A DNA stretch of 64,000 nucleotides from a virus (Duplodnaviria; Caudoviricetes), in IMG/VR virus record IMGVR_UViG_3300025098_005131. The stretch is one strand, 5' to 3'. Shown here in pieces: positions 18,594-63,170 of the stretch (position 1 is the first letter of the stretch; each line of letters begins with the position of its first letter). A program made the position numbers and the translations under genes. The notes under the pieces were generated by a model that saw only the letters and a list, made by a program, of their open reading frames with translations, searched no databases and was not told the DNA's origin.

Positions 18594-18800
18594 ATGATAA
18601 AAAAATCAAACGTCAATGATCTTGTTAGAATAGTAGGCCGGTCATATATGCCCCTAAAAGATAGGCCAGTTTACCTTGTTTTAAAGAAAAAAGAAGATGA
18701 TTATAAATATGATTTTCTTTTATTGAGTGAAAACGGAGAATCATTCTGGACCAGATTTGTTAGGAAAAGTAAAGACGGTAACTTAGTCATTATATCCTAA
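18594..18800 (+). CDS. small SH3-like hypothetical protein
   Basis: NDLVRIV..YLVLK..Y.FLL pattern. Confidence 0.5.
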   Translation: MIKKSNVNDLVRIVGRSYMPLKDRPVYLVLKKKEDDYKYDFLLLSENGESFWTRFVRKSKDGNLVIIS

Positions 18801-20983
18801 ATAAATACTTCATCTCTCAGCGTAGGCAAGTTAAATGTATCTTCAACGATCCATCCAAGATTATCTATTTTTTCTCTAATAACCTTCATCTTAACAAAAT
18901 CACTTGAAAGAGCAGTAGCACTATTAAATGCTTTCATGCCTTCTTTAAACATTTCTTTAGGTAAATCCGCTGCATCTCTTAAAGCATATCCGTCTTTTAC
19001 ATCATACATTTTTTCTAATATAAACTTAGGATCAAACTTATCTCTATTTATAGTGTAAGCTGATGCACCAAAGTCCACTACACCAATTTGCTCTGAAAGT
19101 GTGTAAAATATGTCTCCCCCGCCGCCACAGGAGTTAGAGTAATAGCCAAATTGTTTAGCAATCTCGTCAAAATTAATAGAACCATTGACTAGTCCTTCTT
19201 TTTCAAGGTTGATAACTGTGTTGTATTTAAATAAGTTTTTTAAAACAGTCAAACTTTCGGATGTTTTAAGTCTTTCGTCATTAAATAAATCAATCAATTC
19301 TTTCTCTACATCACTTGCTGTTGACGAATTACTTTCAAGTGAATCATTTAAAGCTTTCGCATCGTTTGTTGTATTTAATATGATGTCGTCTATTTTAAAT
19401 CTAGAAATAGAATTATCAACTACACAAGTGCCTCCGCTACCAATGACATCATCATAAATTTTATATACAAATTCATCAGCAAGACCTTCGTCATTCATTA
19501 AATAAAACTTACCCTTTAAAGGTTCAAGCTCTTGCTCTACAAGTCTTGCAAATTCTTCTTCGTTTTGTGCTACACATTTTAAACCGTTAAGTTCAAAGTC
19601 TGCTAACTTTGGTTCATTTGGATCAAAAGATAGTGCATACTTTTTTAATAGATAACAATACTTTTCAAATTCATCTTTACTAACAATTTCAAGTCCTGGA
19701 CCAAAAGTATCAACAAAAGTTAGAAAAGGTTCAGCTAAGATAGAACAGATAAATTGTATGTACTTATATGACTTAGCTAAATCTCTACAATAATTGTCAA
19801 AAGCAGGCTGAGTATTTTCTACTCTTGAAATAATAAGGTCTTCAGCGGCATCACCATAAGCTTCCATTAAAGGATCTAGCACACTGTTAACTTCCTTAGG
19901 AAAGTTTTCTAAAAACTCATCATCGCTATCATTTTCTTTTGAAAAGTTTGCAAGTTTTTGTTTTAGTTCTTCACCTCTCTTTAGATTAAACTCATTATCA
20001 TCTTCGTCTATTTCTTGTGAGAAAGTAAATACATCTTCAAGACTTGTTCCTGATCTGCCTATTAACCTTTCAATTTCATCTTCAATTATAGGTTCACCTT
20101 CTTTGCCAAAATATCCTGCACCTGTGAGTTTATATGAATTTGACATTTCCGGGTAATAAATAACGCAAACAGGACCATCATTTCGCCCGTGAAAGATTAC
20201 ACCAGTTATAACATCTCTCAGTTTTGTATACTTTCCTCTTTTAAATAGCTTACTATATTTATTTATAACATGCAATGCCATTGGAGCAGTTCTAATATCT
20301 GTCTCATAAGTGCTATTTAAAAATTCAGGTCTGTCTGACATTTTTGATAATACATCAAGAAAGCTGCTTATAGCATCATCAGCATCAGGTGAAATATCTA
20401 GTTTAACTTCTTGATTATAGAAACCACGAATATCAACGTTCATTTTTCTGCATATTTCTAAAAACTGGTCTTCTAATCTAAAATTGTCTCCGTATATACC
20501 TTTTGCTATTCCTGCATTAAAAATTAGCATTGAAGATATATCAACATCAAATCTTAAAATAACGCTACCATATGTTCTTGCAATTTCTGGGTTTAATTTA
20601 TAACATGTATAAAGACCTTTAGCATACATCCTACCCTCTCCAGCTATGAAATAGCTACCTGCGTCCCAAGAACCAGTTCTAATACTATCTGCTATATGAT
20701 ATGCTTGTCCTTGAGGCGTCTTAAATTTCTCAAGATCTTTTGCGGCGGCTTTGTATTCCATTTTAGATAAAATACTTTTTGCTCTTGTTTTTTTCTTGCT
20801 CTTGCTTTTTGCTTCAATTTCATCTCTCAAGCCTTTGTCTGTTTTGTCCAACTTTTTCTTATAGGCAGAGTCGTACTGAGATGTCTTAAATCCTGTCAAG
20901 TGGTAGACAGTTGCTTTCTTTGAGCTATAATCTATTTCTTCTTTAAGCAGCTTTTGATAATGCTCTTTTAATAACTTTCTCAT
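18797..20983 (-). CDS. PARP-like ADP-ribosyltransferase domain protein with L-x-E leader, paralog of 47765-50527
   Basis: VYHLT, G.GRMYAKGLYTC...ARTYG, GVIFHGRNDGPVCV. Confidence 0.6.
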   Translation of the reverse strand: MRKLLKEHYQKLLKEEIDYSSKKATVYHLTGFKTSQYDSAYKKKLDKTDKGLRDEIEAKSKSKKKTRAKSILSKMEYKAAAKDLEKFKTPQGQAYHIADSIRTGSWDAGSYFIAGEGRMYAKGLYTCYKLNPEIARTYGSVILRFDVDISSMLIFNAGIAKGIYGDNFRLEDQFLEICRKMNVDIRGFYNQEVKLDISPDADDAISSFLDVLSKMSDRPEFLNSTYETDIRTAPMALHVINKYSKLFKRGKYTKLRDVITGVIFHGRNDGPVCVIYYPEMSNSYKLTGAGYFGKEGEPIIEDEIERLIGRSGTSLEDVFTFSQEIDEDDNEFNLKRGEELKQKLANFSKENDSDDEFLENFPKEVNSVLDPLMEAYGDAAEDLIISRVENTQPAFDNYCRDLAKSYKYIQFICSILAEPFLTFVDTFGPGLEIVSKDEFEKYCYLLKKYALSFDPNEPKLADFELNGLKCVAQNEEEFARLVEQELEPLKGKFYLMNDEGLADEFVYKIYDDVIGSGGTCVVDNSISRFKIDDIILNTTNDAKALNDSLESNSSTASDVEKELIDLFNDERLKTSESLTVLKNLFKYNTVINLEKEGLVNGSINFDEIAKQFGYYSNSCGGGGDIFYTLSEQIGVVDFGASAYTINRDKFDPKFILEKMYDVKDGYALRDAADLPKEMFKEGMKAFNSATALSSDFVKMKVIREKIDNLGWIVEDTFNLPTLRDEVFI

Positions 20984-21520
20984 CTATTCTCCGAATTTTA
21001 TGTTTTGAGGTTTTCTATCTTTTGGTAATACATAACTATGTTTAATGACTTTAAATATATCTTCTTCTGAGCTAAAGTCATAGACTTTTTTAGTTTTATG
21101 GTTAATAAACCTAAAAGGTGTGTATCTTATATCAGTATTGTTTTTTAAGTGCTTCATAATTCTTAAATTCCAATCTTCACATCCTGTTAAAAAGAAAAGC
21201 ATAGAATAATAATTGTGATGCCCAGCAATAAATAAATCAATACCCGTATCAAGTATTTGACCTTTATAAAAAGATCCTTTAGAGAAAAACTGGTAATCCA
21301 TTGTATCTTCTAATGTTTTCCCTGCAAGCTGGGGATTGTCTACTTCAATAACGATATCTAAATCACCTATTGTTTTTCTTCCTCTTCTTAAAGATCCTGC
21401 AGGCGAAATGTTTTTAACTTGGATGCCATTCTGCTCAAGAACAAAAACAATATCTTTTGACTCTAATTGGTATAAACTATTTGCACTTTCCCAAGACATC
21501 CTATTAGGTTTAATCCTCAT
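20984..21520 (-). CDS. minimal X-family DNA polymerase (palm+thumb)
   Basis: AGSLRRG...GDLDIV, IDLF, FLTG..WN, EEDIF...Y.LP.DR. 178 aa. Confidence 0.8.
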   Translation of the reverse strand: MRIKPNRMSWESANSLYQLESKDIVFVLEQNGIQVKNISPAGSLRRGRKTIGDLDIVIEVDNPQLAGKTLEDTMDYQFFSKGSFYKGQILDTGIDLFIAGHHNYYSMLFFLTGCEDWNLRIMKHLKNNTDIRYTPFRFINHKTKKVYDFSSEEDIFKVIKHSYVLPKDRKPQNIKFGE

Positions 21521-62232: not shown

Positions 62233-62249
62233 TTTTTTTGTCTTTTATT

Positions 62250-63170
62250 TCAAAAGCTTCTTGTTGGAACATCCTGAACTATATCAAACATTTTCGTATA
62301 ATGATCAACAGAGTTAAGTGTTCTTTCAAAAAAGTTTATTAAAGTTAAAATATTTTGTCTTTTAGTTTCATGATCACTATCTTGACAAAGTCTTTTAATT
62401 TGATTTGCTATTTGCTTTACTAAGCCTCGAAATTCGTATGCTTCTAGCTCTTTCATATCGACTTTTAGTATATTAGCTATTTGATTTATCTGCTCATAAG
62501 AGTGAGCGCTAATGCCATCACTTTCAATAGAAGTAGACTCCAATTGTATCTCTGGCAATCTAGCACTTGACATTCTATTTTTAAACGGCTCAATATCGTT
62601 CTTAAGCTCTTTTCTAACTTCTTGTAAAATAAACTTCAGTTTTCTAGCTGAGTCTTTTACAGTAAAGATTGAATTAGAAATAGGAGTTGCAAGCATATTT
62701 CTTCTACTTCTAGTATCTTTTAACTGATTTGTTATCTGGCTCATTTCTTGAGAAGAAATTCTGCTAAAATGAGCAAAGCTTTTGTTTGATTCTCTCAATA
62801 TGTTAAACAGCTTAAAAAAAACATATAGGTGTCTGTAAGCTTCTTTGTTGGAGTATAAAATACTTTTTAAACTGTTTGTATCTCTCATTATTGTGCTTGC
62901 TATGTTTTTATTGTTTTTTTTTCTTCCTGTAACTTTGTCAAAGAGGTTACTAAAAAATCCTTCTTCTAAGACTTCTTGTTCTTTTGATAAAGAAGCACAG
63001 CTTATAACACACCAATGTATAACTTCTTTTGCTTGCTCAGAAGTTAGACCAAAATCAGAAATTAAAGTTGTCATGCTTAATTCTTTACTAATTTCTGTAT
63101 CTTCTTTAGTAAGTTTTTGTTTACCAAATGCTTTAGCAATAATCAGTATAATTTCGTCTTTTTTTGCCAT
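62250..63170 (-). CDS. hypothetical protein
   Basis: Internal VLEE-GFFSNLF site. Confidence 0.65.
   Translation of the reverse strand: MAKKDEIILIIAKAFGKQKLTKEDTEISKELSMTTLISDFGLTSEQAKEVIHWCVISCASLSKEQEVLEEGFFSNLFDKVTGRKKNNKNIASTIMRDTNSLKSILYSNKEAYRHLYVFFKLFNILRESNKSFAHFSRISSQEMSQITNQLKDTRSRRNMLATPISNSIFTVKDSARKLKFILQEVRKELKNDIEPFKNRMSSARLPEIQLESTSIESDGISAHSYEQINQIANILKVDMKELEAYEFRGLVKQIANQIKRLCQDSDHETKRQNILTLINFFERTLNSVDHYTKMFDIVQDVPTRSF

Follow-up and report, generated by a model that had tools for sequence, protein, structure and literature searches.

An N-terminal leader ending at glutamate on unrelated proteins of a marine phage lineage: a probable enlarged T4-type capsid-targeting system

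The stretch of DNA analyzed here (the window) comprises 64,000 nucleotides (nt) of the Caudoviricetes record IMGVR_UViG_3300025098_005131, and it raises the question of why at least 13 genes between positions 18797 and 63170 begin with a short leader that ends in a hydrophobic residue, any residue and glutamate (h-x-E). The initial annotation had taken the leaders for a modular tag, cut by a relative of the T4 prohead protease gp21, that loads diverse enzymes and basic proteins into the phage head for ejection. The capsid-targeting sequence of T4 was reportedly described by Mullaney and Black in 1996. The first 10 residues of the T4 internal protein IPIII are MKTYQEFIAE (PMC8442874), and these residues direct proteins to the core of the prohead and are cut off by gp21; foreign proteins are packaged and delivered when fused to this sequence, which suffices for packaging, the T4 internal proteins vary and retain the targeting sequence only, and the ADP-ribosyltransferase (ART) Alt is packaged and ejected (PMC3012670, PMC9026906, PMC5694885). 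The targeting sequence on IPI, IPII, IPIII and Alt is removed by gp21 (reviews PMC9026906, PMC3012670).

The answer that we favor, with a probability of about 0.7, is that the leaders form an enlarged capsid-targeting system of the T4 type, cleaved by a gp21-type protease and serving a larger cargo set. In this mechanism, the tagged proteins would be made together with the head proteins, and an amphipathic N-terminal helix of 11–18 residues may bind the cargo to the scaffolding core of the assembling prohead. Following closure of the shell, a gp21-type serine protease could cut after the Glu of the h-h-x-E site, which would leave the body free inside the capsid alongside the DNA, and at least some bodies may then leave the capsid together with the DNA upon infection. 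DNA-bound internal proteins could be what the small proteins of 31–42% Lys+Arg represent, and the larger tagged proteins could be enzymes and uncharacterized proteins acting early in the next host. Of the earlier modular-tag proposal, the tag itself stood, being enriched, N-terminal and ending at Glu, and a suitable protease is present in relatives; its "ParB-like" and "nuclease-like" cargo labels found no support in Pfam or PHROGs.

The window has a base composition of approximately 30% G+C and is densely coding, and genes identical to its own are present on marine metagenome contigs. IMG/VR contains relatives of this phage, including IMGVR_UViG_3300033183_000491 (G011), a 239,550-bp genome with direct terminal repeats that is rated 100% complete. 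G011 is collinear with the window (window 33–64 kb with G011 0.6–26 kb, and window 1–32 kb with G011 207–239 kb), with protein identities of 27–89% and the majority of matches at 40–85%.

The leaders are real and far beyond chance. All 13 that had been quoted were found at the starts of their genes, and the ATG at 47765 is genuine, since every orthologue begins MKNSIRWLL. In the window proteins, [LI][LI]xE occupies 1.0% of positions in residues 1–20 and approximately 0.2% elsewhere, and it occurs within the first 30 residues of 13 of the 40 open reading frames (ORFs) starting at 34–64 kb versus 6 of the 77 starting before 34 kb (Fisher p = 0.001). A strict amphipathic rule was then defined, requiring a Glu preceded by hydrophobic residues at positions −2 and −3 and at −6 or −7, together with a charged residue at −4 or −5, with the first 24 residues as the N-terminal zone and the internal positions of the same proteins as the control. 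By this rule, the window shows 30 sites in 1904 N-terminal positions and 38 in 16316 internal positions (approximately 7-fold, binomial p = 1e-15), and G011, which played no part in defining the rule, shows 48 in 4964 and 170 in 65870 (3.7-fold, p = 4e-14), an N-terminal excess across the proteome of the kind that the earlier proposal implied. A hidden Markov model built from nine window leaders gave, with a minimum of 6 bits, seven N-terminal hits and one internal hit in G011, and reversed sequences yielded none; with nine seeds it is too weak for counts, and the explicit rule was used instead.

The description "L/I-x-E" was right in that all 13 leaders end in h-x-E, mostly in h-h-x-E, and too short, as the true consensus is longer. 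Class 2 leaders follow h-L-L-x-E-x-[YWF]-[IKR]-[KR]-x-[FLY]-L-x-E, as in ILLEKYIKTFLKE, LLVESWRSFLKE, LEEFIRETLLDE and LLKEHYQKLLKE. Class 1 leaders follow MKITE..LR.II..VI.E and occur on five mutually unrelated bodies, namely, a 118-aa acidic protein of the window (34005..34361, minus strand; leader MKITESKLRNIIRSVIAE) and four proteins in G011 and the relative G006. The weakest of the 13 are those at 47765 (LLTE-11), 60071 (LLFE-12) and 53960. At 55109, ILENYIKE at residues 5–12 is a better leader than the KVLLE quoted before. The leader codons differ at synonymous sites between genes; therefore, the peptide, not the DNA, is what is conserved. The tag lies at the N-terminus and is common to unrelated bodies: approximately 11 bodies are unrelated, and the claim of unrelatedness gives way for one pair, the 728-aa and 920-aa proteins, which are similar even after removal of their first 25 residues (E 2e-26). 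Four small tagged proteins contain 31–42% Lys+Arg, and the lysine-rich trio of 133, 98 and 123 aa has little in common outside the leader.

Where the tag ends can be read from the conservation of individual families, most clearly from the 213-aa HxGH nucleotidyltransferase (58469..59110, minus strand), whose leader is MKTKLLVESWRSFLKE (nt 59063–59110). Across 105 aligned homologues with 48–100% identity, L6, E8, W10, F13 and E16 are conserved at 92–100%. Mean entropy is 0.99 bits in the leader (residues 1–16, 0% gaps), 2.71 bits in the linker (residues 17–34, 31% gaps) and 0.95 bits in the enzyme body (1% gaps), so that the leader is about as conserved as the enzyme domain, and conservation drops right after E16 into an acidic linker of variable length that extends to about residue 34. 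The enzyme domain begins at residue 36; TIGR00125 matches residues 36–86 at 36.9 bits, above its cut-off of 27.7, and FH(K/E)GH is invariant in all 105 homologues, which bears out the transferase label given before. In the family of a 981-aa protein (55540..58485, plus strand; leader MKYSLKNEYKSLLKE, nt 55540–55584), MKYSLKxxYxxLLxE is kept down to 35% identity and the residues past E15 are unalignable. In that of a 163-aa protein (54618..55109, minus strand; leader MNNKILENYIKE, with a second site at VLLE-24), LLE.YIK is kept in the orthologues and is followed by an indel-rich linker, the same pattern as in the 213-aa family. The tag is thus a discrete unit under purifying selection up to the Glu. 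In more distant homologues of the nucleotidyltransferase, the leader has another sequence but is of the same type, MRLFEKVYKRLLSE, and in G011 the nucleotidyltransferase leader of the window sits on a 75-aa acidic protein by the head module, so leaders and bodies recombine. This 75-aa protein (L123; G011 112914–113141) consists of the nucleotidyltransferase-type leader MNNTKLIMESWRKFLKE and an acidic tail only, with no enzyme.

The head module of the lineage is of the T4 type, and the proteins of this module bear the same sites. Peptidase_S77 is encoded in five of five large relatives, and the G011 copy (E 2e-29) matches T4 gp21 (PDB 5jbl, E 1e-16). Its neighbors are a portal protein, a scaffold of 513 aa in which h-x-E sites number 34, and a capsid protein of the gp23 type (T4 gp23, E 2e-31) that has five h-x-E sites in residues 1–59 and six in the other 540. 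Small head-module proteins of 96 aa and 138 aa carry the motif as well (for example, SIVKECLVELLAE and RRMVLEE), as does the N-terminus of the protease itself (RLITE-9), and the motif LKSIVKECLVE is likewise present in G011. On another contig, the genes follow one another as terminase, Portal_T4, S77, scaffold and Gp23, and close homologues of the protease (88–93% identical) are numerous on ocean-metagenome contigs.

Comparison with T4 reveals the same basic arrangement: an N-terminal tag on otherwise unrelated proteins, ending in hydrophobic-x-Glu; a protease of the homologous family (Peptidase_S77, PDB 5jbl) with a T4-type head module, seen in relatives; and small lysine-rich cargo alongside large enzymes, drawn from a hypervariable gene set. 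The resemblance extends to the peptides, as the LEEFIRE core of the 98-aa leader resembles YQEFIAE of T4, LLFEE and LLKEE of the window leaders resemble INELLRE of the T4 gp24 leader, and RLITE-9 of the G011 protease is comparable to QLLIE-9 of T4 gp21. In contrast to T4, the leaders have 11–18 residues instead of 10, often contain two h-x-E sites and a near-invariant aromatic residue, and by sequence fall into two or more classes. More genes are tagged than in T4, with 13–14 in the window and 36 flagged ORFs of 292 in G011, against an expected background of 6–29 at a false-positive rate of 2–10%. Unlike in T4, the tagged genes are scattered across much of a genome of approximately 240–280 kb, and they are known here from sequence alone. 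In phiKZ, 201phi2-1 and SPN3US, propeptides of head and ejection proteins are cut by gp21-related proteases (PMC5694885, PMC10052503). The present lineage resembles these jumbo phages in having many predicted head-internal or ejected proteins and a gp21 homologue predicted to cut after Glu. Their sites are S/A/G-x-E or A-x-E and their propeptides mostly exceed 100 residues, whereas the sites here are L/I/F-x-E in leaders that are short as in T4, and the capsid protein of this lineage, unlike those of the phiKZ type, matches T4 gp23 directly by sequence.

Cultured phages provide a further comparison. A 218-aa tagged protein of the window (53960..54616, plus strand; leader MNNLLIEHKKILSE; phrog_7595, E 2e-14) and a 94-aa protein have homologues in the T4-like phage Melnitz and in Flavobacterium phage immuto. 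In Melnitz, a Methylophilales phage, the 218-aa homologue is the C-terminus of a protein with a MKKFSEIIEA start and an HxGH domain, and the genes around the two homologues start MKKFSEIIEA, MKKFSELTSELIE, MQGFKTFLSEA and MKNFKNHIAEE. These are close to MKTYQEFIAE and have the short T4 form, unlike the longer leaders of the window; therefore, leader forms span from the T4 form to the long form. Leaders resembling the capsid-targeting sequence are thus available for comparison in cultured marine T4-like phages (Melnitz and Kyanoviridae) and in immuto, and a limited literature search found no paper calling them targeting signals, nor one describing an expanded leader set in marine jumbo phages. 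BLAST gave no significant similarity between the window nucleotidyltransferase and the Melnitz gp18 domain. Among marine phages, the C-terminal domain of the 218-aa protein is common; this domain (GGSKKFYVYVK...SFAARH.C) was also seen in pelagiphage podoviruses, in roseophages and in spindle-shaped viruses of Nitrosopumilaceae.

The distribution over gene classes was examined by flagging proteins with the rule. Among window genes, 7 of the 67 early plus-strand genes and 14 of the 45 others were flagged (p = 0.012); the motif is therefore not equally common in early cassette genes, whereas equal frequency there had been named by the initial annotation as adverse to its proposal. In G011, the flagged proteins number 19 of 88 in the left arm (0–66 kb), 5 of 12 at 197–206 kb and 4 of 26 in the head module, as against 2 of 30 in the replication and tail region (66–108 kb), 1 of 57 among tail, baseplate and fiber proteins and 5 of 79 in the early cassettes; the groups low in leaders comprise tail and replication genes in addition to the early ones. 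Applied to T4 genes at 100–150 kb (73 scanned), the rule recovered the known gp21 substrates gp22, gp24, Alt and Inh. Its protein-level background is approximately 8% for T4 proteins without known cleavage (6/73), 10% for window early genes, 6% for G011 early genes and 2% for G011 tail genes. More than 20 genes are preceded by an early promoter, GTGTAA-N17/18-TATAAT, but none of the 13 leader genes is; copies of the promoter lie in window 1–32000 and 39000–41300, each approximately 45–50 nt upstream of a small gene. None of the G011 leader genes examined has an early promoter, and upstream k-mers of the structural type were found for 9 of 13 leader genes, 22 of 41 structural genes and 5 of 44 early genes in G011, which is suggestive of late timing of the leader genes.

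Several points weigh against the capsid-targeting reading. It draws on homology and sequence statistics; the protease and head module were seen in relatives, and the head module of this genome itself lies outside the window. Taken alone, G011 shows a weak difference between its early genes and the remainder (5/79 versus 31/213, p = 0.07), and the loose rule has the false-positive rate of 2–10% given above. The k-mers hint at late timing and no more: they are shared within very AT-rich DNA, and TATAAATA, the T4 late promoter in its strict form, is unlinked to the leader genes, with 14 matches in the window versus 12 expected and none serving a leader gene. In addition, three of the 13 leaders are short, and several bodies, at 728–981 aa, exceed T4 Alt (682 aa).

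Among the competing explanations, the one that survives best, which we nevertheless regard as unlikely, retains a cleaved prohead-targeting propeptide and holds that most of the cargo is made up of assembly or core components that are degraded or kept in the capsid, not of ejected effectors. The T4 protease and motif also process proteins of the core, namely gp22, gp67 and gp68, which are broken down (PMC9026906), several tagged proteins of G011 lie within the head module, and profile and atlas searches recognized no enzymatic domain in most of the bodies. However, at least one body is a conserved HxGH nucleotidyltransferase, and the majority of the tagged genes sit in a hypervariable block distant from the head module, like the internal-protein and alt genes of T4, the products of which are ejected.

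Less probable still is that the leader is an amphipathic helix with another role, such as association with a membrane or assembly site, oligomerization, chaperonin recognition or import into a replication compartment, with a merely coincidental likeness to gp21 sites. Strong conservation proves that the leader has a function and not which one, amphipathic helices have many targeting roles, and the lineage encodes its own GroEL-like chaperonin. Yet the conserved unit ends at h-h-x-E, the P3–P1 pattern of the very protease family that the lineage encodes, and the capsid propeptide, the scaffold, the small head-module proteins and the protease bear the same sites. With respect to particular roles, the leaders are without a hydrophobic core long enough for secretion, and a search of G011 gave no tubulin, a point against a nucleus system of the PhuZ type (chimallin was not searched for). 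That there is no shared signal at all, the leaders reflecting paralogy of a few genes and the Leu/Ile/Lys/Glu-rich composition of an AT-rich genome, is highly improbable and strongly disfavored: the lysine-rich trio does have near-identical leaders on adjacent genes and may be paralogous, and in a genome of approximately 30% G+C the loose rule does flag 2–10% of control proteins, but the reference for the enrichment was the interior of the very same proteins, the enrichment recurs in an independent genome and is missing from tail proteins of like composition, approximately 11 bodies are unrelated, and the leaders are kept over more than 100 homologues in which the next residues are not.

If the leaders are indeed capsid-targeting tags, sequence alone would suffice to list the proteins that an abundant, uncultured lineage of marine phages packages and probably injects. 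Proteins delivered with the DNA act first, in host takeover and counter-defense, and in the absence of virion proteomics they are difficult to identify. Compared with T4, the tagged set is bigger and more varied, and its uncharacterized proteins of 586–981 aa and the nucleotidyltransferase are candidates for early functions; the leader itself, short and portable with a sharp end, may be a packaging tag worth testing. A more far-reaching version, tentative and on balance doubtful, would make the leader an address code readable from the sequence, with at least two classes (MKITE..LR.II..VI.E and LL.E.[YW]..FL.E), that directs about one-tenth of the proteome to the capsid interior, with nucleotide-modifying enzymes and large uncharacterized proteins among this cargo. 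The classes might sort cargo by place in the prohead core or by copy number, and the hypervariable block might be the main arsenal of injected host-takeover and anti-defense proteins.

The 920-aa protein (47765..50527, plus strand) has the short leader MKNSIRWLLTE, and its 728-aa paralogue (18797..20983, minus strand) has MRKLLKEHYQKLLKE; the two leaders differ in sequence and are of the same type. Family alignments show the invariant motifs YHLT, GLYTCY and F(E/D)xDIS in the N-terminal domain of the 920-aa protein, and an atlas feature score of 0.92 links the 920/728-aa N-terminal domain to clusters with PF18760 in 21% of members. ART-PolyVal, RES or AcrIF11 is a lead for this domain and nothing firmer, and the motifs YHLT, GLYT and FExD are compatible with the ART label proposed previously and prove nothing. 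A PDB profile search for an ART in the 920-aa N-terminal domain and Pfam searches with eight family members were empty, the AlphaFold2 model of the domain was poor (predicted local distance difference test score, pLDDT, 53) with no Foldseek match at E <= 0.001, and the 920-aa protein has no match among GenBank phages. G006 has the 920-aa gene twice in tandem, with products of 945 and 920 aa. The 728-aa gene adjoins a gene for a 178-aa minimal PolX-like protein (20984–21520) with weak palm and thumb matches. The 981-aa protein described above resembles, as a lead from the protein atlas only, viral DUF6267 proteins, which are often fused to CTP_transf_like domains. The 586-aa protein (51036..52796, plus strand; leader MILLEKYIKTFLKE) keeps a YIKxFLxEA core in seven orthologues of 46–91% identity and has no match in Pfam, PHROGs or the protein atlas; for it and for the 317-aa and 163-aa proteins, profile and atlas searches gave no assignable function. 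The 317-aa protein (59118..60071, minus strand), whose leader MKRKKLVNLLFE is followed by an acidic run, is a weaker member of the set, and KLVNLLFEED is retained in its L007 orthologue.

Four basic proteins look like candidate DNA-bound internal proteins from their composition. The 133-aa protein (52847..53248, plus strand; 34% K+R; leader MSNDFILEEYIKEALLIE) has a G011 orthologue at 86% identity and a weak phrog_33950 match. The 98-aa protein (53285..53581, plus strand; 42% K+R) has the leader MQDLLMLEEFIRETLLDE, the codons of which differ synonymously from those of the adjacent paralogous leader, so selection acts on the peptide. The 123-aa DUF5824 protein (53592..53963, plus strand; 32% K+R; PF19141, E 3e-9) carries MNDLILLEEFIRESLLDE, and the 73-aa protein (50818..51039, plus strand; 31% K+R) carries MNSLLKDLILEIILSE, which is kept by the L007, L010 and G011 orthologues. 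A tentative candidate beyond the 13 is a 168-aa Cys-rich EF-hand protein (41901..42407, minus strand; EF-hand_1, E 2e-7) that starts MSERKLIRE, and its MSERKLIREF N-terminus is kept in all relatives. Six of the 13 leader genes are absent in G011, and the flanking core genes are mostly 50–89% identical. The cargo block at window 47765–60071 is hypervariable relative to G011 14.6–23 kb, G011 being without the 920-, 586-, 981-, 317- and 728-aa genes; the cargo thus differs among close relatives, and the genes for T4 internal proteins show comparable variation.

Other features of the window concern the genome as a whole. The ends of the terminally repeated G011 map to window 32350–33000, with window 32171–32347 matching G011 239268–239444 and window 33003–33842 matching G011 680–1504; therefore, the window crosses the virion-genome terminus of the lineage. 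Genes for a GuaC-like GMP reductase, a PurA-like adenylosuccinate synthetase and a PurB-like lyase are clustered at 42450–46695 (minus strand). Read together, they would provide a route from guanosine monophosphate (GMP) through inosine monophosphate to adenosine monophosphate, which would suit a genome of 30% G+C. The PurA-like protein has 398 aa, is short at the C-terminus and scores under the NCBIfam PurA cut-off; an identity as PurZ was rejected, as the PurZ model gives 122 bits only and PurA scores far better. A UvdE/UvsE UV-damage endonuclease (TIGR00629, above cut-off) is encoded at 46753–47673. At 36516–38974 (minus strand), a MoxR-type AAA_5 ATPase adjoins a DUF2201 protein with metallopeptidase-like and VWA-like domains, a pairing that is frequent in large phages. 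In the relatives G003 and G011 (L014; G011 46.2–51.1 kb), extra ORFs, possibly inteins or homing elements, interrupt the gene for a PHP-domain DNA polymerase III alpha subunit, and the lineage also codes for GroEL and an RpoD-like sigma factor.

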